Source of the DNA: a virus
Reading direction: 5' to 3' (one strand)
DNA: 64,000 nucleotides
Virus record (IMG/VR): IMGVR_UViG_3300028844_008248
Shown here one piece after another: positions 7,675 to 61,329 of the stretch. Numbering within the stretch: the first letter of the stretch is position 1; each line of letters opens with the position of its first letter. The notes beneath the pieces are model-generated. The model was not told where the DNA came from and searched no databases. It saw only the letters and a list, made by a program, of their open reading frames with translations. The translations under genes were made by a program, and so were the position numbers.

Positions 7675-8712
7675 TTAAAATCCCTCGTTAATTCTTGATT
7701 TAGTCATGATTTCGACCTCTGAAAATGAAACACTCAATTCTACATCCACTGGCGCACCAGAATTAAATGCAGACCACAACCCGGACGATGTATAATTGAC
7801 AGTAACATCAGTACAAACGCATTGAGATATTTTAGGTAAAAACTGATTGTCCTTTACTGTTCCGTTGCTATCGTTTTTGTGTAAAAATTGTATTTGAAAT
7901 TCAGAAGGATACACTAAGAAATTTTGTGTTGAATCTCGTGTTAAGTCTGGTGCCGCATGAAACTTAAAAAGTTTTATGATGTTGGCGATTCTAATAACTT
8001 CCGATTCGCTTCTAGGACTTATCTTCCATGCAAAGGTAAATTTTCTAAAATCTGTTCCTTGAAATCTAACTTCGGCGTGTGGGTTTAATATAAATCTATT
8101 TGAGGTTTCGTTTACAACATCACCATTAGCACCTGTAGACGATACCGCTAAGTTTGCCAATTTAGATAATAATGTTGTTCCTATGTTACCACCAACTCCA
8201 GAACCTAAATCAGTTCTTTTTAATAAGTCTGTAATCGATCCTATTGGATCGTTCACGTTAATACCTCCACGAATAGCACCACCAACAAACCCCAACTCTG
8301 CATTATCCCATCCAACAGTATTATTAATACTCAATGCACTAGGCATAGGTAATACAATATCAGTAGACACCGTAAATTGTTTATTTCGTCTGTTAATCTT
8401 AGTTGGTCTTTCTCCTTGAAGTGTCTTAGGAGCAACTTGTGATTTAAACACATTTGGATTTCGTTGTTGTATAGTCTGATTAGATTTTGTTATAGGATCA
8501 TAATCTACTTCGCTTATCGTATTTATATTTGTGTTCTCGAATTCAACTATACCAAACCGCATCCAATCTTTATATTCTTCCTTTGATATATCTTCTGGAA
8601 ATGTATATATGGGATGTTCTCGATATTTAGCTGTAGTTTTAACACCTTCCAAACTCACTGGAGTTTGTTGAGATGTAGACTGGTCTGGTTTTATATCTTT
8701 AAATTCTGGCAT
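7675..8712 (-). CDS. Baseplate/tail tube initiator-like structural protein (gp48/gp54-like?), 345 aa
   Basis: First gene after late promoter TATAAATA (minus strand, 8759-8766); structural-type composition. Confidence 0.4.
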   Translation of the reverse strand: MPEFKDIKPDQSTSQQTPVSLEGVKTTAKYREHPIYTFPEDISKEEYKDWMRFGIVEFENTNINTISEVDYDPITKSNQTIQQRNPNVFKSQVAPKTLQGERPTKINRRNKQFTVSTDIVLPMPSALSINNTVGWDNAELGFVGGAIRGGINVNDPIGSITDLLKRTDLGSGVGGNIGTTLLSKLANLAVSSTGANGDVVNETSNRFILNPHAEVRFQGTDFRKFTFAWKISPRSESEVIRIANIIKLFKFHAAPDLTRDSTQNFLVYPSEFQIQFLHKNDSNGTVKDNQFLPKISQCVCTDVTVNYTSSGLWSAFNSGAPVDVELSVSFSEVEIMTKSRINEGF

Positions 8713-8758
8713 ATGTATTCGATTCTCTGGTATATAAATAGTATTATGGCTTGTATAT

Positions 8759-8766
8759 TATTTATA
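8759..8766 (-). promoter_or_regulatory. T4-type late promoter TATAAATA (minus strand) for baseplate operon
   Basis: Plus-strand tatttata = TATAAATA on minus strand, about 47 nt upstream of ORF start at 8712. Confidence 0.5.
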
Positions 8767-8800
8767 TGCACATTTAGAACATTTCTATAATATTTGAAAT

Positions 8801-8845
8801 GAAAGTTAAGTGTTACTTAGCACCCGTAACTTTCACTTTTTAAAC
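8801..8845. terminator. Conserved hairpin GAAAGTTA-N18-TAACTTTC followed by T-run (member 1 of 3 of a recurring hairpin)
   Basis: gaaagttaagtgttacttagcacccgtaactttcactttttaaac; same arm sequence recurs at 18013-18036 and 19549-19578. Confidence 0.4.
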
Positions 8846-8865
8846 AACTGTGTTATGTGTGCTAC

Positions 8866-8985
8866 TAGTTACTACTAGTAACCACTAGTTAGTATAAATA
8901 CCACACTATATAACACTACTATTGTAGAGTTATATTAGTAGTTATTTCTAGTAGTTACTAGTAGTAACTAGTAGTTAGATGTAGG
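8866..8985. repeat. Two clusters of 10-bp ACTAGT-containing direct/inverted repeats (ctactagtta x3 ; ctagtagtta x3) flanking a TATAAATA box (8893-8900, plus strand)
   Basis: Read directly: tactagttactactagtaaccactagttagTATAAATAcc … ttctagtagttactagtagtaactagtagttag. Confidence 0.7.
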
Positions 8986-9033
8986 TTTGTATTATAAAAG
9001 TGTTATTTATTAATTATAACTTTCGTTAGGACT

Positions 9034-11013: not shown

Positions 11014-11041
11014 AGTATATCAGAGTTTTATTCGATGTCAA
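11014..11041 (-). promoter_or_regulatory. Early sigma70-type promoter TTGACA-N16-TATACT (minus strand)
   Basis: plus-strand agtata…tgtcaa; member of conserved promoter family (gtataccagagttttattcgatgtcaag). Confidence 0.65.
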
Positions 11042-14008: not shown

Positions 14009-14479
14009 TTACAGTACCTCAAGAACGTTTTTAATGAATTTGCCTCTTCCCCAATACTCATTGACAGGTTTCACCCCACGCTGATCGATAACCAAAGAAC
14101 CGTTTTCAACGACTTGAACATGTCGAGTAGTAGTAACAATGTAGGTCTTGGACGGATCAGCATGTTTAGTCATCCAAGTCTTTAACGATTTACGACCAGA
14201 CATCTCTACCTTCTTAACGGCAACATCAAGAAAATCCAGCATAAGAAGTCTTTCCGAATGGTAAGTACCGCCATCCCATCGTTCGGGCATATCAAAGAGA
14301 ATCTTAAAATCAGAAGTTACTACATCAAGTGACTTTTTAGCTACATACGCCATAGCCACAACTCCACAATTTCGTTTGTTCACTACCAATCCAAGTTCGT
14401 CCAGAGTGTCGGTAATTTTGGCTGTTGTCGTTTTCATCATCATCCTCAAAAGAATTAATATCATCATCAATATGTACAT
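14009..14479 (-). CDS. Hypothetical early protein, paralog family A (with 16593..17033)
   Basis: Shares …Y(I/L)V(T/V)TT.H.QVV..G..(V/A)DQ… and N-terminal Cys-containing segment with 16593..17033. Confidence 0.5.
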   Translation of the reverse strand: MYILMMILILLRMMMKTTTAKITDTLDELGLVVNKRNCGVVAMAYVAKKSLDVVTSDFKILFDMPERWDGGTYHSERLLMLDFLDVAVKKVEMSGRKSLKTWMTKHADPSKTYIVTTTRHVQVVENGSLVIDQRGVKPVNEYWGRGKFIKNVLEVL

Positions 14480-14507
14480 AGAATACCAGAATCTATGTGG
14501 ATGTCAA
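14480..14507 (-). promoter_or_regulatory. Early promoter TTGACA-N16-TATTCT (minus)
   Basis: agaataccagaatctatgtggatgtcaa. Confidence 0.5.
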
Positions 14508-14536
14508 GAGAAATCGTATATCATAATATAAAGTTA

Positions 14537-17033: not shown

Positions 17034-17425
17034 TATTTTTGATCTCCTTCCATTCTGAAATTAACTTGATCAGCAACAAACTTCTCATAACCAGCAACAG
17101 AAACTTCGTATCCACCATCACGCAACCATTTTTTGATACTATCAGCAACATAACCTTTGGATTTAAGAATGCCGTGAGGAGATTCACCAGCATCATATCG
17201 CTCGAAGTATTCAGCCGGAGAAAAGTTTTTGATTAGGAAAGAAAGAAATCCGGGTTTGTTGGACCTCATGTGTTTGAACCGGGCAACAAATTTGTCACCG
17301 TACATCAGATATCCACCATGATAGTTGAAGTTTTTTCGGTCAAATTTCATCGTGTTTTGATCTCCTGTAGTTGAATCGTTATCAATCATGTTCAACAAGT
17401 ATACCAGAGTTTTATTCGATGTCAA
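17033..17425 (-). CDS. Hypothetical early protein (true start probably 17350 or 17389; ORF-track N-terminus lies inside the promoter)
   Basis: Promoter -10 at 17399-17404 lies within ORF-track N-terminus; AGGAGA SD before ATG at 17350. Confidence 0.45.
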   Translation of the reverse strand: MTSNKTLVYLLNMIDNDSTTGDQNTMKFDRKNFNYHGGYLMYGDKFVARFKHMRSNKPGFLSFLIKNFSPAEYFERYDAGESPHGILKSKGYVADSIKKWLRDGGYEVSVAGYEKFVADQVNFRMEGDQK

Positions 17426-17426
17426 G
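17399..17426 (-). promoter_or_regulatory. Early promoter TTGACA-N16-TATACT (minus)
   Basis: agtataccagagttttattcgatgtcaa. Confidence 0.65.
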
Positions 17427-17624
17427 GTCTAAATCAATGCCCTGCATAATTTCTTTTTTCGTTCCACCAGAATATTTTGATCGCATATCAGAATGCTCTC
17501 TACTGGTCCATGCATTCCAGTATTTGGGTGGAACATTGTGATGACGATATATCGTAACGCCACGATAGAGATAGATGCCTGATTCGATTTTTTTAGCACT
17601 GTTTTTGTTTTTCATCATCGTCAT
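17412..17624 (-). CDS. Hypothetical early protein, 70 aa
   Basis: ORF; promoter at 17662-17689. Confidence 0.4.
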   Translation of the reverse strand: MTMMKNKNSAKKIESGIYLYRGVTIYRHHNVPPKYWNAWTSREHSDMRSKYSGGTKKEIMQGIDLDLDIE

Positions 17625-17661
17625 CTCTCATCATCCTCATCAAAAGAATTAATATGTACAT

Positions 17662-17689
17662 AGAATACCAGAATCCTAGAAGATGTCAA
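17662..17689 (-). promoter_or_regulatory. Early promoter TTGACA-N16-TATTCT (minus)
   Basis: agaataccagaatcctagaagatgtcaa. Confidence 0.5.
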
Positions 17690-17800
17690 GCAGAATCGGA
17701 GAATAATTCGGGGTTCAAAAAGTGCTACATTTTGTAGCATATTTATTTAATGGTCCAGAATAGTCGAAGTGGGTAAATGTGCTTGTTGATAGTGCATAGA

Positions 17801-17843
17801 GGAAATGACAGGAAATGACAGGTAATGACAGGTAATGACAGGA
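17801..17843. repeat. Tandem direct repeat 4 x 10 bp (aatgacagg[a/t])
   Basis: ggaaatgacaggaaatgacaggtaatgacaggtaatgacagg. Confidence 0.85.
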
Positions 17844-17897
17844 ATAGTCGAAGTTACCTATCCTTCCTCTGCAAAACCCGACTATTCTCAGAACTAC

Positions 17898-17950
17898 GCC
17901 CAAAATAACTCATAGCCCAAAATAACTCATAGCCCAAAATAACTCATCAC
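17898..17950. repeat. Tandem direct repeat 3 x 17 bp (cccaaaataactcatag)
   Basis: cccaaaataactcatagcccaaaataactcatagcccaaaataactcatcac. Confidence 0.85.
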
Positions 17951-18037
17951 GCCTAATTTAGCATATATATACCTGCTTTATCATAGATAGTCGGGTTTGT
18001 CAAGCTTTAAATGAAAGTTACGGGTGATAACTTTCAC

Positions 18038-18066
18038 TTGACACTGAACAACTCCTGTGATATACT
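18038..18066 (+). promoter_or_regulatory. Strong sigma70-type promoter on plus strand TTGACA-N17-TATACT with no downstream ORF (candidate sRNA promoter)
   Basis: cTTGACActgaacaactcctgtgaTATACT; downstream 200 nt lacks ORF, contains 15-bp inverted repeat. Confidence 0.5.
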
Positions 18067-18208
18067 GTAGGTTTATAGTTATGCATATACCAGAAACTGT
18101 GCGCTCCATTCCCATTATATATTATATATTCGAAGTTGTCAAGTGGAAATATTCGTGTAACATTAACTGTTAATGTAAATCTATGCTACGACTTAAACCT
18201 ACAGTATA
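18062..18208 (+). ncRNA. Candidate structured small RNA bounded by perfect 15-bp inverted repeat (tatactgtaggttta / taaacctacagtata)
   Basis: Transcription start predicted about 18073 from upstream promoter; IR arms 18062-18076 and 18194-18208; no ORF. Confidence 0.3.
18114..18142 (-). promoter_or_regulatory. Convergent sigma70-type promoter on minus strand TTGACA-N17-TATAAT facing the plus-strand promoter about 50 bp away
   Basis: minus strand cacTTGACAacttcgaatatataataTATAATggg. Confidence 0.5.
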
Positions 18209-18454
18209 GCACATAAAAACCATGATGTAAAGAAAATTCCGGCCTATTCTATGTGGCTTCCCTGTATGTGGTTGACCAACTCCGTAAATAACCGCACTTT
18301 GGCTCGATCAGTTTACGTGTGCTTATCTTACACTACATAGAATAGTCGGGTTTTTGGACCGCTATCAGAGACTCGAACTCTGAATTGTAACCCGGATTTA
18401 CAGAGCGTATCGATGCAAATCGTGTTATAGCGGATATTTTCACTATATTTTTAT

Positions 18455-18483
18455 ATACTATCACACATATTCGGGTTTGTCAA
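18455..18483 (-). promoter_or_regulatory. Promoter TTGACA-N17-TAGTAT (minus) firing into ORF-free region
   Basis: minus strand tcTTGACAaacccgaatatgtgtgaTAGTAT. Confidence 0.4.
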
Positions 18484-18567
18484 GAGGGTTTTTGTAAAAA
18501 CCGAATATCGTTATTCCTGCACTCTCAGCCAATATCTCCCTAGCTGAAAGTTGGTAAAAAGTCCTTA

Positions 18568-18759
18568 TCAATCCATCAAGAATAGTACTCCAGCCAAAAC
18601 ATAACCAAGCTGTCCGGTGGCTATTCCATACACAACGAGAATCCATCCTAATATATCCAAAGTCATGATTTCCTCTCTCGGTTCACCACAGAGCAAATAA
18701 GCAACGAGAATACATCCTAATATATCCCAAATCATGGTTCGAAGCTCAGATGCCCACAA
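18568..18759 (-). CDS. Small membrane protein with internal duplication, 63 aa
   Basis: Two about 30-bp direct repeats (atcctaatatatcc[c]aaa[g]tcatg) encode repeated MIWDILG / MTLDILGWIL. Confidence 0.35.
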   Translation of the reverse strand: MWASELRTMIWDILGCILVAYLLCGEPREEIMTLDILGWILVVYGIATGQLGYVLAGVLFLMD

Positions 18760-18938
18760 TTCGGGTCAAGATCACATACTTTCAATGATGTTGGTGGACA
18801 TCGGCGCAAAATATAATGTAGAGATGTTTCTTTTATTGGTATCCAGATGTCCGTACCTTTCACCTCTACATATACTTCTCTGAGATTAATAATAACAGGT
18901 AAGATTTCATCACCAACATATATAGTCGAGTTATCCAT
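18732..18938 (-). CDS. Hypothetical protein, 68 aa
   Basis: ORF. Confidence 0.3.
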   Translation of the reverse strand: MDNSTIYVGDEILPVIINLREVYVEVKGTDIWIPIKETSLHYILRRCPPTSLKVCDLDPNCGHLSFEP

Positions 18939-19127
18939 AATGTTACCACACCTCCATAGTTACAGGTCCAGTTGGCAATTTGTTCCACTGGTGCGCTACA
19001 TCAGGCCAGAGCATCAATGGCTCACCATAGTGTAAGACGCTCTCAAACCAAAAATTAGCTAGGTTAATCTGGTGTGCCAGCAAAGTAGTCGGGTTCATCT
19101 TATTAACTCCGTTTTAAAGCTCGTTTA

Positions 19128-19289
19128 TTATAGTTCAACTACGACTATGTTTGGGGAATATCCGTTCAACATCTCGTGGGCTTCGTCTTTACCGAAGTAA
19201 CCAACTAGCTTCGTACCGGACCAATGTTCAGTAACTCCAGCTTCCAACCAAGTCACTTCGTATGTTTTTCTCGGTTTTACTTTCATCAT
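19128..19289 (-). CDS. Small early protein (start trimmed to MMKVKPRK… after GGAG; ORF-track N-terminus overlaps promoter)
   Basis: Early promoter at 19328-19355; SD GGAG 7 nt before ATG at 19289. Confidence 0.45.
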   Translation of the reverse strand: MMKVKPRKTYEVTWLEAGVTEHWSGTKLVGYFGKDEAHEMLNGYSPNIVVVEL

Positions 19290-19327
19290 TCGATTAACTC
19301 CTATAAGCAATCGTTTATCATGTAACC

Positions 19328-19355
19328 AGTATACCAGAGTTTTGTCTGGTGTCAA
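19328..19355 (-). promoter_or_regulatory. Early promoter TTGACA-N16-TATACT (minus)
   Basis: agtataccagagttttgtctggtgtcaa. Confidence 0.6.
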
Positions 19356-19908
19356 GAGAAATATGTATATAAGTTTGAGCATAGATTTACATTAACAGTG
19401 AGTGTAATAACATCAGAAGATAGCTCTTGACAGATGTATAATATATGTGCTATACTGAGAGTGGAAACTGATTCTTAGATTTACAGTGAATGTTCTGGTA
19501 TATAAACATGTCACGTAAAGTACTATAAGAGATTAGTCGGGTTTTGTTTTGAAGTGAAAGTTAAGTCGTGCTAACTTTCATTTGGAGTAGACAATTCAGG
19601 ATTGAGTCGGACCTGTCATGTTGGGCTTGACTTGGAGAGAGAGCTTGCAAAGCCTAGTCGGGCTACTAGAGCCAGCATGGACACAGAGCCTAGTCGGGCT
19701 TTGCCCAAACCGGAAAAAAAACATTGGGCGAAAGTAGTCGAAGTTAGAAGCTATTTTGTAACAACTTTTTTATTAGTGTTTTATTCTGTAGGTTTTTCGG
19801 TGGGAAACTTCGAATATCTCTCTATCTACCAAATCAAATTCAACTATTCTAAAACCGGAAAATCAAAATTTTTTTCGAGCTATATTTTTAGGTTCTGAGA
19901 ACTTTACT

Positions 19909-37884: not shown

Positions 37885-39123
37885 TTAATCTCCCTTTATA
37901 TTCAATATCTGTTTTAGTGTATGTACAATATCAACCAAATCTTTTTGATTTTCCATAACAACATCAATATCTTTATATGCATCAGGAATTTCATCAATAA
38001 CGGATTGCCTCGTGTTACATACAATTCCTTCCATACGTTCTTCTAAATCTTCAAGAGTATATAAAGTTTTTGCTTTTGATCGTGAGAATCTTCTACCTGC
38101 ACCATGAGAACATGAATTAAAAGATTCTTGATTTCCCTTTCCACGTACAATAAAAGATTTCGCTCCCATAGAGCCGGGTATAATACCCATAGTTCCGGTG
38201 GAAGCATTAACAGCACCTTTGCGGGTAATCCATACATTTTTGCCATAGTGATGTTCTTTGGATACATAATTATGATGACATTGAACAACAGAATCTTTTA
38301 TAATAATATCCTTCTTATTCGAAAATAAATGATAAAACACCCCAAGAATTTGATCCATCATAACCTGTCGATTGTAATATGCATATTGTTGTGCAAGATT
38401 TAATGCTTCGACATATTCATCAAAATATACTGTACCTTCCGATAAGTAAGACAAATCTGCATCGGGAAGATTAATAAAATGTCGTTCCATATCTTTTTTT
38501 GCCAATTTTATATAGTGTTGTCCTATTCTATTTCCAAGATTTCTAGAACCAGAGTGTAGCATAATCCAAATATTATCCGATTCATCAACACACACTTCAA
38601 TAAAATGATTTCCACCACCCAGCGTACCAAGTCGGGAATATCCGTTTTCAAGAATTCGCTCTTTCATTTTTCGATCAGATATAATATGGTCAAATCCGTT
38701 TTCAAACATATTTTTCCATAATTTATCTCGGCTTCTACCCTTCGTGAACTCGTACTTGTTAGATTTAGAATCCTGAAACGATCTTTGATATCCAGATTTT
38801 CCACAAGGAACATTTTTAATTATTCTGTTGTGTAATAAATCTAACGTATTTTCTTTTAAGTCATGAGATGTCAGGTTTGTTTGTACCGCCATCATACCAC
38901 ACCCAATATCAACTCCAACAGAAGCAGGTACAATTGCGCCCGAAGTTGGAATAACCGAACCAACACATGCACCTTTGCCCAAATGAGCATCCGGCATTAC
39001 CGCAATATGTTTATGTATGAATGGAAGATTGGACATATGTTCTAATTGATCGTATGTAACCGAATCAATATCTTCAGTCCAAATCTTTACCGGGAATTTA
39101 CCCTTTGTCATTACCTGTTTCAT
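37885..39123 (-). CDS. rtcB: RNA-splicing/repair ligase RtcB (3'-phosphate/5'-OH RNA ligase), 412 aa
   Basis: Diagnostic …MPDAHLGKGACVGSV…, …HSGSRNLGN…, C-terminal …NSCSHGAGR… metal-binding motifs of RtcB. Confidence 0.85.
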   Translation of the reverse strand: MKQVMTKGKFPVKIWTEDIDSVTYDQLEHMSNLPFIHKHIAVMPDAHLGKGACVGSVIPTSGAIVPASVGVDIGCGMMAVQTNLTSHDLKENTLDLLHNRIIKNVPCGKSGYQRSFQDSKSNKYEFTKGRSRDKLWKNMFENGFDHIISDRKMKERILENGYSRLGTLGGGNHFIEVCVDESDNIWIMLHSGSRNLGNRIGQHYIKLAKKDMERHFINLPDADLSYLSEGTVYFDEYVEALNLAQQYAYYNRQVMMDQILGVFYHLFSNKKDIIIKDSVVQCHHNYVSKEHHYGKNVWITRKGAVNASTGTMGIIPGSMGAKSFIVRGKGNQESFNSCSHGAGRRFSRSKAKTLYTLEDLEERMEGIVCNTRQSVIDEIPDAYKDIDVVMENQKDLVDIVHTLKQILNIKGD

Positions 39124-43205: not shown

Positions 43206-43234
43206 CAGTATAACAGAGTTTCGGAGTATGTCAA
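43206..43234 (-). promoter_or_regulatory. Early promoter TTGACA-N17-TATACT (minus)
   Basis: agtataacagagtttcggagtatgtcaa. Confidence 0.55.
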
Positions 43235-43530
43235 TGTTTATTTTCGGGTATGTAAAAGAAGGTGGGACGTTCTGTTTCTAGGTGTCCCAAGCCCAAGGCA
43301 ACTTTACGCCGCCAATGCTAGATCGTAATCATTTGCATTTATAATCTGATAGATTTTTTACTAGGCCAACTATCATCCTAGTGCTGTCTTAAAGATTATT
43401 ATATCCAATCGAATCCAGTTCGCCCCCATGAAAAAAGTGTATTGCACTTCTCGTTTTGATTATTATCCAATTTCGACATGTCAGAATAATAAACTAGATG
43501 GGGTTTCAACCATGAACAATACACTCTTAT

Positions 43531-43560
43531 GGTGGAGGCGGTGGGTATCGAACCCACGTC
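43531..43560 (-). other. Orphan tRNA 3' fragment (T-arm + acceptor 3' strand + CCA) with no matching 5' half
   Basis: minus strand …CGTGGGTTCGATACCCACCGCCTCCACCA; no complementary GGAGGCG within 150 nt. Confidence 0.45.
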
Positions 43561-43595
43561 TTAAATACTTTCGTCAATAAGATTATACAGCAATA

Positions 43596-43982
43596 TTATA
43601 CTATGTTGTACATACCATCCAATTTTGTAATACCATCTTGAAGATATGTTGGTATTGATTTATGTTCTTTTGTATTATCAAATACTGATAAAAATTTATT
43701 ACCATCTACTCCGGGGTTTGTACAAATCATTGTGAATTCAGGACCACGATAAACCCACTTAGGTAAAAATCGTTGTGTGTATATTCCATCTTGATACCAC
43801 TGACCCAACTCCACAACATCTTTTTTAGATTCCCAATATATTACATGATCTTTTTCAGTCGGATCAATATACCAAAAATAATTTAGTTTTGACTCCATAG
43901 GAATAACAACCCAATCTTCTTGATATCCGAAATATTCATAAATTTCATTTTGTAATTTAAAATATTCACCCAATAATTTCAT
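43596..43982 (-). CDS. Hypothetical protein, 128 aa
   Basis: ORF. Confidence 0.45.
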   Translation of the reverse strand: MKLLGEYFKLQNEIYEYFGYQEDWVVIPMESKLNYFWYIDPTEKDHVIYWESKKDVVELGQWYQDGIYTQRFLPKWVYRGPEFTMICTNPGVDGNKFLSVFDNTKEHKSIPTYLQDGITKLDGMYNIV

Positions 43983-61211: not shown

Positions 61212-61329
61212 TGGTACTCCGGGCAGGAATCGAACCTACACATCACGCCATTATATCATTGAGATATAATAGTTATGGATAAGGTCTCTAATATAATCTT
61301 GTTGCCTCTTCCATTTGGGCTACCGGAGT
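61212..61329 (-). tRNA. tRNA-like gene with about 40-nt internal insertion (perfect 7-bp acceptor ACTCCGG/CCGGAGT, canonical T-arm GGTTCGATTCC, CCA) spanning 118 nt
   Basis: 3' part reads as canonical tRNA; complementary 5' acceptor strand found 118 nt upstream; internal AT-rich hairpin TTATATC…GATATAA. Confidence 0.35.

Follow-up and report, generated by a model that had tools for sequence, protein, structure and literature searches.

Organization of the gene-free gap

The DNA analyzed here, hereafter the window, is a stretch of 64,000 nucleotides (nt) from the IMG/VR virus record IMGVR_UViG_3300028844_008248. Our subject is its largest non-coding gap, at positions 17625-18460 (836 bp), together with the second-largest internal gap at 19383-19908; both were delimited by a codon-usage measure, which is crude. 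Nearly all genes of the window are carried on the minus strand, and the gap is surrounded by a long run of small orphan genes. Such an orphan-rich early region is termed hyperplastic in T4-type phages. Coding potential was scored as a per-codon codon-usage log-likelihood trained on 26 long genes of the window. The open reading frames (ORFs) within the gap scored between -0.18 and +0.06, while the flanking small genes scored +0.07 to +0.20 and the long genes 0.15-0.31. A preliminary description of this DNA had claimed that the locus held no credible ORF, and the scores of every ORF within the gap bear this out. The gap is a real, statistically unusual non-coding zone. It would reach position 18567 if a doubtful ORF of 61 residues (18461..18646) is discounted as a gene; on contigs L001 and L138, gene callers left this ORF uncalled. 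The sequences available for comparison were near-identical contigs (99.75%) and one 7.4-kb fragment of a relative, IMG/VR contig 3300028844_003505 (L144). The elements collected in Table 1, their enrichment, the ancestry of the element derived from a transfer RNA (tRNA), the paralogy of two modules and the strain polymorphism were read directly from the sequence and its statistics.

We found the gap to be densely occupied by strong promoter-like sites. Four such sites were present in the 836 bp, compared with 0.07 expected; none of 1000 dinucleotide shuffles reached four, and the promoter density was approximately 10 times the window average. The three promoters named in the preliminary description, at 18038-18066 on the plus strand and at 18142-18114 and 18483-18455 on the minus strand, were all recovered. 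Elsewhere in the window, approximately 17 promoters share one layout, in which TTGACA, a 16-bp spacer ending in CTCTGG and TATACT are followed by a conserved leader, a Shine-Dalgarno site and an ATG. Several of these gene-proximal cassettes are near-identical over 30-70 nt, and the canonical copies include those at 11041, 11413, 17425 and 42615. The gap promoters carry the same TTGACA/TGnTATACT signature as these gene-proximal promoters. Nevertheless, those at 18003, 18038, 18142, 18231 and 18483 are followed by no Shine-Dalgarno site, no ATG and no positive-scoring ORF. Only the 17689 promoter has these, and it is an ordinary cassette that closes the gap and resembles that at 14434-14512 (75% similarity over 80 nt). 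Within the window, orphan intergenic promoters are confined to this gap and the neighbouring one. One promoter family, D4, has three copies inside the gap.

The 15-bp inverted repeat that had been reported to bracket the plus-strand transcript proved exact, and it widens to 20 nt with 95% complementarity (18056-18075 with 18194-18213). Its arms correspond to the -10 box and the first transcribed bases (TGnTATACTGTAGGTTTA) of the promoters 18038 (plus) and 18231 (minus), which are convergent and 118 bp apart, with the 18142 (minus) promoter in between. The sense/antisense geometry is therefore real, and the arrangement that the preliminary description had considered possible stands as a geometry given by the positions of the convergent promoters. 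In coliphage 186, the face-to-face promoters pR and pL interfere with each other; together with a repressor they form a lysis/lysogeny switch, and genes flank them on either side. The gap is similar in that two strong promoters, approximately 50-120 bp apart, would fire into each other; in contrast to 186, no gene lies within the overlap on either side, and the window holds no lysogeny genes.

Strong convergent promoters with overlapping 5' ends would also suit a type I toxin-antitoxin-like pair, in which a peptide of 30 residues (18082-18173, plus) would lie opposite the antisense RNA of the convergent promoter, and this short ORF indeed starts 9 nt past the predicted plus-strand start. However, the ORF scores -0.16 per codon and has neither a good ribosome-binding site nor a hydrophobic stretch of membrane length. 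In addition, the inverted paralogue of this region (module B, described below) keeps neither the reading frame nor the peptide. We consider such a pair scarcely credible.

Table 1. Features of the gap and of the inverted paralogue (window coordinates; energies and z-scores refer to predicted folds; M = A or C, W = A or T, Y = C or T)
Feature	Position	Strand	Remarks
Promoter TTGACA-N16-TGgTATTCT, followed by Shine-Dalgarno site and ATG	17662..17689	-	Serves the ORF of 70 residues at 17624..17412
Palindromic hairpin, then CTTTTTG on the minus strand	17722..17740		-7.7 kcal/mol, z -3.4
10-bp tandem repeat AGGWAATGAC x 4.5	17800-17844		Tandem Repeats Finder, 94% matches, score 76
AAMYYCGAMTA copies	17845-17855 (-), 17874-17884 (+)		Within 17845..17888
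17-bp tandem repeat GCCCAAAATAACTCATA x 3 (2.9)	17898-17948		Tandem Repeats Finder, 100% matches, score 100
Weak promoter-like site TTGACA-N17-TAAAGC	17975..18003	-	Paralogue of the 18483 promoter, 88% over 26 nt (family D4)
AAMYYCGAMTA copies	17988-17998, 18127-18137, 18343-18353, 18468-18478	-	Looser copy at 17755-17770
Conserved hairpin GTGAAAGTTA-loop-TAACTTTCA, then TTT	18012..18037	-	-18.6 kcal/mol, z -5.15
Promoter TTGACA-N17-TATACT (TGaTATACT)	18038-18066	+	11/12 consensus with TG; predicted start near 18073
Promoter TTGACA-N17-TATAAT	18142-18114	-	12/12, perfect consensus; predicted start near 18107
22-mer ACTGTTAATGTAAATCTATGCT	18166..18187		Precedes the -35 box of the 18142 promoter by approximately 25 nt; identical at 19378-19399
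Promoter TTTACA-N17-TGcTATACT	18231-18203	-	10/12 with TG; absent from the preliminary list
Structured element, 11-bp closing stem from two inverted motif copies, T-rich tail	18244..18345	-	-31.1 kcal/mol, z -3.0
tRNA-derived gene, 79 nt	18355..18433	-	Acceptor stem, T arm and CCA intact; D and anticodon arms decayed
Promoter TTGACA-N17-TGaTAGTAT	18483-18455	-	10/12 with TG
Composite stem-loop over the -35 of the 18483 promoter	18467-18483 with 18492-18508	-	z -2.6
Module B, inverted paralogue of 17995-18235	19340..19600	+	Inside the second-largest gap, approximately 1.3 kb away
Module B promoter TTGACA-N18-TGcTATACT	19427-19456	+	
Module B block TTCTGGTATAT	19493-19503	+	
Module B hairpin	19554-19580	+	

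A tRNA-derived element downstream of an orphan promoter

The preliminary description had listed the promoter at 18455-18483 as another ORF-less one. The promoter is present, but its surroundings are not featureless: a tRNA-derived gene lies just downstream, beginning approximately 15 nt past the predicted start. The acceptor stem of this element (18433-18355) is a perfect 7 bp, CCGCTAT/ATAGCGG, followed by a discriminator T and an encoded CCA, and its T arm is a perfect 5-bp stem, CAGAG-TTCGAGT-CTCTG, with a TTCRANY loop, joined directly to the acceptor strand. The format of an encoded CCA followed by A's is common to this element and all six genuine tRNAs of the window (6/6).

The element was not reported by ARAGORN at default settings, nor by an Rfam tRNA match even at E<=10, because its D and anticodon arms are non-canonical. 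With relaxed settings, ARAGORN did report it, with one D-stem pair, but also returned 34 extra sites in the window, and this call is therefore no evidence. A pattern of the top half of a tRNA, comprising the acceptor stem, the T arm, the loop motif, their adjacency and CCA, was run on the window and on 200 simulated windows. It matched only four real tRNAs and the element in the window, and matched nothing in any of the 200 simulated ones. As judged from its sequence, the element is certainly tRNA-derived; with the D and anticodon arms non-canonical and below detection thresholds, it is accordingly classed as tRNA-derived and not as a tRNA. The survival of 12 stem pairs, the T loop and CCA, with the other arms unrecognisable, argues mildly that the element is under selection.

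Non-coding RNAs linked to tRNA genes are known in T4 itself, whose tRNA cluster includes two small stable RNAs, RNAC and RNAD, of documented expression and unknown function (PMC3014915, PMC9697503). The element resembles them as a predicted non-coding RNA linked to a tRNA gene and tRNA-processing signals in a T4-type phage. In contrast to RNAC and RNAD, it is separated from the tRNA cluster by 29 kb, follows a promoter of its own and is expressed by prediction only.

With introns allowed, ARAGORN also called a seventh tRNA at 61212-61329 (minus), whose anticodon loop would be interrupted by a 25-nt intron; the default run missed it. This call is labelled 'Tyr(ata)', has an acceptor stem ACTCCGG/CCGGAGT followed by ACCA, and is of interest as the phage carries RtcB.

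Hairpins and terminator candidates

The hairpin at 17722-17740 was the only terminator-like site that a terminator scan found between 16.5 and 20.5 kb. It lies upstream of the 17689 promoter, before which it would act as a terminator-like stop for the predicted non-coding minus-strand transcripts. The hairpin at 18012-18037, which we presume to be a terminator or insulator, is part of a larger stem-loop (17997-18051, z -5.15). The promoters 18003 (minus) and 18038 (plus) stand back to back here, and both have their -35 regions in the arms of this stem-loop. For the structured element at 18244-18345, 1 of 200 shuffles folded equally well. The further inverted repeat that the preliminary description had placed in this area is present; its true arms are 18234-18254 and 18335-18355, so that the second arm had been placed approximately 10 nt off.

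An inverted paralogue and recurrence of the hairpin

Positions 17995-18235 on the plus strand (module A) and 19600-19340 on the minus strand (module B) are approximately 75% identical. Both contain the hairpin, the TTCTGGTATAT block and an identical 22-mer, and each has a consensus promoter (18142 on the minus strand in module A, 19427 on the plus strand in module B). In module A, the unit from the 18142 promoter to the hairpin at 18037-18012 is approximately 100 nt long and contains no ORF; the corresponding unit of module B measures approximately 125 nt on the plus strand. The two modules share no reading frame, and their conservation is therefore not protein-coding; the terminal hairpin is their only structurally conserved part. 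Between the two units, which are directed away from each other, lie the tRNA-derived element and an operon of four or five tiny genes.

The conserved hairpin occurs three times in the window, compared with zero copies expected, and its stem is invariant in all three. The third copy (8800-8836) is found where the early region ends, a short way ahead of TATAAATA, a late promoter of the T4 type that serves tail genes. A search of IMG/VR with the hairpin pattern led to contig L144, the only relative found in any collection. This contig contains an early promoter and leader cassette as in the window, 94% identical over 68 nt, and, just past the major capsid gene, a hairpin with an identical stem, a different loop and, alongside, an antisense TGcTATACT box homologous to the -10 of the 18038 promoter. 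Stems that stay identical while the loops differ, at sites where transcription units end, are consistent with a terminator or an insulator.

The post-capsid spacer of L144 (1798-2139, approximately 340 nt) holds a GC-rich terminator, the conserved hairpin with its antisense box, an orphan consensus promoter (1991-2020) and then a normal gene promoter, and it thereby forms a miniature of the target region at a different genomic place. We also considered whether the TTCTGGTATAT block might pair with the first part of the tail-cap gene (8704-8735) and rejected this as being at chance level: at one mismatch, 11 sites were found against 2.75 expected, and these were mostly -10 regions.

An 11-mer motif confined to the zone

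The motif AAMYYCGAMTA was found in 13 copies in the window, compared with 0.73 expected, and nine of these fall within 17845-19816; its core, CCCGACTA, has eight copies compared with 0.45 expected, seven of them in the same zone. In the promoters 18483, 18003 and 18142, the spacer opens with the motif, whose 11 nt thus adjoin the -35 hexamer. Both the 18467-18508 hairpin and the 18244-18345 element have stems made of inverted copies, and two further stretches with inverted copies (17873-17888 and 18339-18354) match each other perfectly over 16 bp. Most simply, the motif is a sequence that the spacers and stems of a single cassette subfamily have in common and that local duplication and inversion have spread.

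In a separate observation, two small hairpins of the form AGCC-CGACUA-GGCU occur 36 nt apart on the minus strand at 19640-19712, each with the motif core in its hexaloop; the fold of the whole stretch does not surpass shuffles (z -0.5).

Assembly breaks were also found near motif copies. Two contigs from independent assemblies, L136 (ENA, MEGAHIT) and L137 (Logan), both end exactly at 19661, and L001 begins exactly at 19544. To judge from these contig ends, the breaks suggest a 116-nt presence/absence or replacement variant (19545-19660) in the population. The segment holds the module B hairpin and has CCCGACTA copies at its borders; target-site duplication and repeat-mediated deletion were considered as its origin, and the contig ends are not where a CCCGACTA-mediated deletion would put them.

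These findings bear on a protein-binding platform, in which the 11-mer, the phased 10-mers of the tandem array or both would be sites for a DNA- or RNA-binding protein of the phage or host. Such a protein would act as a switch for the orphan early promoters, in either direction, or as a mediator of recombination within the zone. The strong confinement of the motif to the zone, mostly in one orientation, would suit this idea, as would its place behind the -35 hexamer of three promoters, a position fit for a repressor or activator; the two hexaloop copies in small hairpins (19655-19700) and the motif copies adjoining the breakpoints of the probable 116-nt variant point the same way. However, common descent of the promoter spacers (family D4) accounts at least partly for the motif copies, the motif is absent from the 7.4 kb of L144 on hand, and no DNA-binding protein is identifiable nearby. 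A resemblance to AP2 DNA-binding domains had been considered for the neighbouring protein of 70 residues (17412-17624, minus), from the pattern YRGV...KYWNAW, and was rejected: the protein had no Pfam, PDB or homologue match, and its AlphaFold model had a pLDDT (a per-residue confidence score) of 45. We regard a platform as improbable.

Tandem repeats and the replication-origin reading

The preliminary description had reported a 4x10-bp and a 3x17-bp repeat. Both are real, and they are the two top-scoring arrays of the window in Tandem Repeats Finder; neither repeat unit occurs elsewhere in the window. The 17-mer copies are perfect and arranged head-to-tail, with three copies in the window and two in L001, a 99.75%-identical contig from another assembly, and short-read contigs, including a Logan contig, break inside this array. 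In the 10-mer array, one unit carries a single-nucleotide polymorphism (SNP) at 17819 in L001 and L002. In total, the strain differences seen were one 17-bp repeat unit, four SNPs and the contig breaks at 19544 and 19661. Because the 17-mers are perfect and vary in copy number among strains, they look like products of slippage and not like a fixed set of binding sites; judged by sequence, the tandem repeats are most simply slippage-prone filler.

On the minus-strand RNA, the 10-mer reads CUGUCAUUWC and lies within 17766-17843 (33% C, 8% G), the most extreme C-rich, G-poor stretch of 78 nt in the window; the 17-mer array mirrors this pattern, being C-rich and G-poor on the plus strand. C-rich, G-poor RNA tracts are loading sites of the termination factor Rho, and the 17766-17843 tract may be a candidate for such a site. 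Repeats tend to extreme composition anyway, and Rho loading is therefore put forward only as a testable idea.

Two further interpretations of the repeats were tried and rejected. A sponge of the CsrA/RsmA type, formed by the ACAGGAAAUG plus-strand repeats, has no credible upstream plus-strand promoter (judged by eye), and its GGA is not in hairpin loops. A retron, a CRISPR mini-array or an attP site was set aside, with no reverse transcriptase, spacers or integrase in the window and with repeat units that abut.

Iteron-containing origins are known from plasmids and from lambda, and the preliminary description had read the locus as a possible origin with iterons and an unwinding element. The closest precedent is oriE of T4 (RepEA/RepEB), in which evenly spaced 12-nt repeats are combined with dependence on an early promoter, although the role of these repeats is unproven (PMC3016281). 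The gap shares with oriE the presence of direct repeats beside an early-type promoter in a T4-like genome, and the origin idea was therefore a reasonable one. An early promoter would here supply primer or R-loop RNA, the direct repeats would serve as iterons, and an easily melted segment close by would open. Indeed, both arrays adjoin strong early promoters, the 10-bp array is in helical phase, and a sharp local strand asymmetry occurs at approximately 17855. However, no distinctive unwinding element was found: the AT-rich tract singled out earlier (17955-17985) is 77% AT compared with 66% for the window, a value equalled or exceeded by 14% of 31-nt windows, and duplex stability is likewise ordinary, the least stable duplex of the gap being the 18114-18142 promoter itself, which is only in the top 3.5-10% of the window. 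The gap contains no DnaA boxes, and Pfam, PHROG and homologue searches revealed no recognisable initiator among the neighbouring genes. The cumulative GC skew does not change at the gap, skew being a weak guide in T4-like phages, and the gap is not at a switch of transcription direction. In contrast to oriE and iteron origins, the repeats here are perfect, abutting and variable in number; the 17-mers, with their 17-bp period, are out of helical phase and present in two or three copies depending on the strain, and the repeat units are restricted to the gap within the window. The origin reading is thus left without support from the AT tract, DnaA boxes, skew, an initiator or the behaviour of the repeats, and we consider it highly doubtful.

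A more origin-like setting than the target region was noted at 8713-9033, where intergenic DNA separates the tail genes from a TnsA/endonuclease-like gene on the plus strand and the direction of transcription changes. It holds the late promoter TATAAATA (8766-8759, minus), the hairpin copy mentioned above and palindromic 10-bp tandem repeats (8862-8891 and 8948-8977).

Predicted transcription of the gap and comparison with PeSLs

T4-type phages such as RB49, phi1, PST and nt-1 contain elements called PeSLs (promoter-early stem-loops), in which strong sigma-70-like early promoters are fused to stem-loops (PMC2839356, PMC4122927). These elements are repeated among orphan genes and combine a promoter, a terminator and recombination sites (PMC2839356, PMC4122927). 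Indels or replacements that map to the cassettes when close relatives are compared, and the formation of mini-circles, are further marks of PeSLs. We found that the gap cassettes were similar to PeSLs in several respects. Stem-loops overlap or adjoin the -35 or -10 regions (18467-18508; 17997-18051; 17722-17740, upstream of the 17689 promoter), similar cassettes are repeated at intergenic sites of an orphan-rich early region, and local duplications and inversions, and perhaps indels, are associated with them. There were also differences. In the described PeSLs, a gene's Shine-Dalgarno site and start codon make up the 3' end, whereas five of the six gap promoters are without both; two gap promoters point against genes, and one precedes the tRNA-derived element. 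Furthermore, the stems here are AT-rich or built on CCCGA/TCGGG, while those of the described PeSLs consist of a G-run and a C-run. Because the gap promoters lack a ribosome-binding site and a gene, and two of them run against genes, we treat the cassettes as a variant and not as strict members of the PeSL group.

The explanation that we favour, and to which we give about an even chance of being right, is that the gap consists of PeSL-like early promoter/terminator cassettes of the sigma-70 type that are mostly orphaned from protein genes and drive short non-coding and antisense RNAs. On the minus strand, which is the sense strand for nearly all genes, the stem-loop over the 18483 promoter would end the upstream small-gene operon, and this promoter would produce a short transcript with the tRNA-derived RNA (18433-18355) and the structured element of approximately 100 nt (18345-18244). 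The promoters 18231 and 18142 would give ORF-less RNAs of approximately 190 and 100 nt that meet the hairpin at 18037-18012. The plus-strand 18038 promoter would fire into these two units, with overlap of the RNAs and collision of polymerases. Read-through would cross the tandem repeats and be stopped by the C-rich tract, possibly with Rho loading, and by the hairpin at 17740-17722, and the next gene would be expressed from its own 17689 promoter. The cassettes would have lost, or never had, protein genes and would now bracket short non-coding units. The firing of the promoters, termination at the hairpins, the accumulation of discrete small RNAs and any function of those RNAs are what we infer in this model. 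The small-RNA or regulatory-hub reading of the preliminary description finds some support in the orphan promoters, the tRNA-derived gene, the paralogous unit and the conserved hairpin, the RNAs themselves being predicted.

Several points weigh against this explanation. Promoters were scored with the Escherichia coli consensus, which may not be that of the host, and five of the six gap promoters lack the Shine-Dalgarno site and start codon that follow the promoter in a PeSL. It may be that the tRNA-derived gene is no more than a dead relic. The stem of the conserved hairpin, an AT-rich structure, is followed by just three T, and the terminator scan did not flag it. Local hairpins alone stand out against shuffles; whole-transcript folds are marginal at best and not clearly beyond shuffles (z -1.7 for 17712-18108, minus; z +0.13 for 18068-18215, plus). 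The strains compared are too close (99.75%) for covariation or conservation of the RNAs to show. Finally, motif copies outside promoters, including those at the 5' ends of small ORFs (19086-19095 and 18923-18932), are not explained by cassettes alone, and the two hexaloop copies near 19655-19700 are likewise left over by an account based on common descent.

The same features could be recombination debris, that is, leftovers of cassette duplication, inversion and deletion, with a dead tRNA gene and dead promoters, 11-mer scars and slippage repeats, in which any transcription would be incidental. The 17-mer copy number varies even among near-identical strains, the assembly breaks at 19544/19661 fall at motif-bounded points, consistent with the 116-nt variant, and the counterpart of the 18038 promoter in module B has decayed, as have the D and anticodon arms of the tRNA relic. 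The neighbouring genes are all orphans, and PeSL-rich regions are known to be plastic (PMC2839356, PMC4122927). On the other hand, three promoters retain 11-12 of 12 consensus positions plus TG, and a whole top half of a tRNA (12 stem pairs, T loop and CCA) beside a decayed remainder is not expected of neutral decay. Moreover, the 22-mer is identical between paralogues that are otherwise approximately 75% identical, and the hairpin stem is invariant in four copies, one of which is from another phage. Debris without a role appears rather unlikely to us.

A further step, which we advance tentatively as possible, would be that the orphaned cassettes form an early non-coding RNA locus. It would produce a tRNA 'top-half' RNA, in which all but the acceptor stem, T arm and CCA has been replaced, from its own consensus promoter, and RNAs from the inverted 100-125-nt paralogues, each under a consensus promoter with the shared 22-mer upstream and one of them opposed by an antisense promoter. 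If so, their targets could be found in the RNA-processing or translation machinery of host or phage, for example RNase P, the CCA-adding enzyme or tRNA-targeting defence nucleases, and action of RNase III on the sense/antisense duplex is also conceivable.

Although T4-type phages have long served as a classic model, little is understood of their small RNAs or of what their repeated promoter/terminator cassettes do; a review of 2010 stated that no small trans-acting regulatory RNA of T4 had been functionally characterised (PMC3014915). Here, 2.3 kb combine orphan consensus promoters in both directions, a tRNA relic reduced to the half that processing enzymes recognise and a duplicated promoter-to-hairpin unit in a lineage nearly without sequenced relatives. 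If transcribed as predicted, the locus would be a compact, easily deleted test case for the roles of early non-coding RNAs, for antisense promoters and for the recycling of gene-less cassettes, and its interest would rise if early small RNAs were detected. If not transcribed, it would be a clear example of how regulatory debris builds up in hyperplastic regions, and also a warning that tandem repeats beside promoters do not alone make an origin.

Phage context and neighbouring genes

The source phage is a large myovirus to which T4 is only a distant relative. It encodes gp6-, gp53-, gp48- and gp2-like proteins, and the window also encodes ribonucleotide reductase, RtcB, six tRNAs and a permuted transfer-messenger RNA (tmRNA). 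The baseplate protein gp6 shows at most 39% identity to any GenBank phage, with top matches in Pelagibacter, Methylophilales and Stenotrophomonas myoviruses. The DNA of the target region had no match among 50,697 GenBank phage records in near and distant modes, and Rfam models across 17500-19900, at the gathering threshold and at E<=10, gave nothing relevant. Protein-anchored and pattern searches of IMG/VR, JGI metagenomes and GTDB genomes returned chance matches only, except for contig L144. The neighbouring proteins had no Pfam or PHROG function and no homologues; in homologue searches with those of 183, 70 and 68 residues, each protein matched itself alone.

The last gene ahead of the gap is a hydrophobic ORF of 55 residues (18568-18735, minus). 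It contains an internal 43-nt duplication (18628-18670 and 18697-18739, 86% identical) that encodes two similar MxxDILGxILVxY segments. Elsewhere in the window, the RtcB RNA ligase gene is located at 37885-39123 on the minus strand (Pfam, E 1e-130). The permuted tmRNA, of the two-piece type, lies at 43213-43644 on the same strand, encodes the tag peptide ANDYDLALAA and scored above threshold for both the permuted and the betaproteobacterial models.

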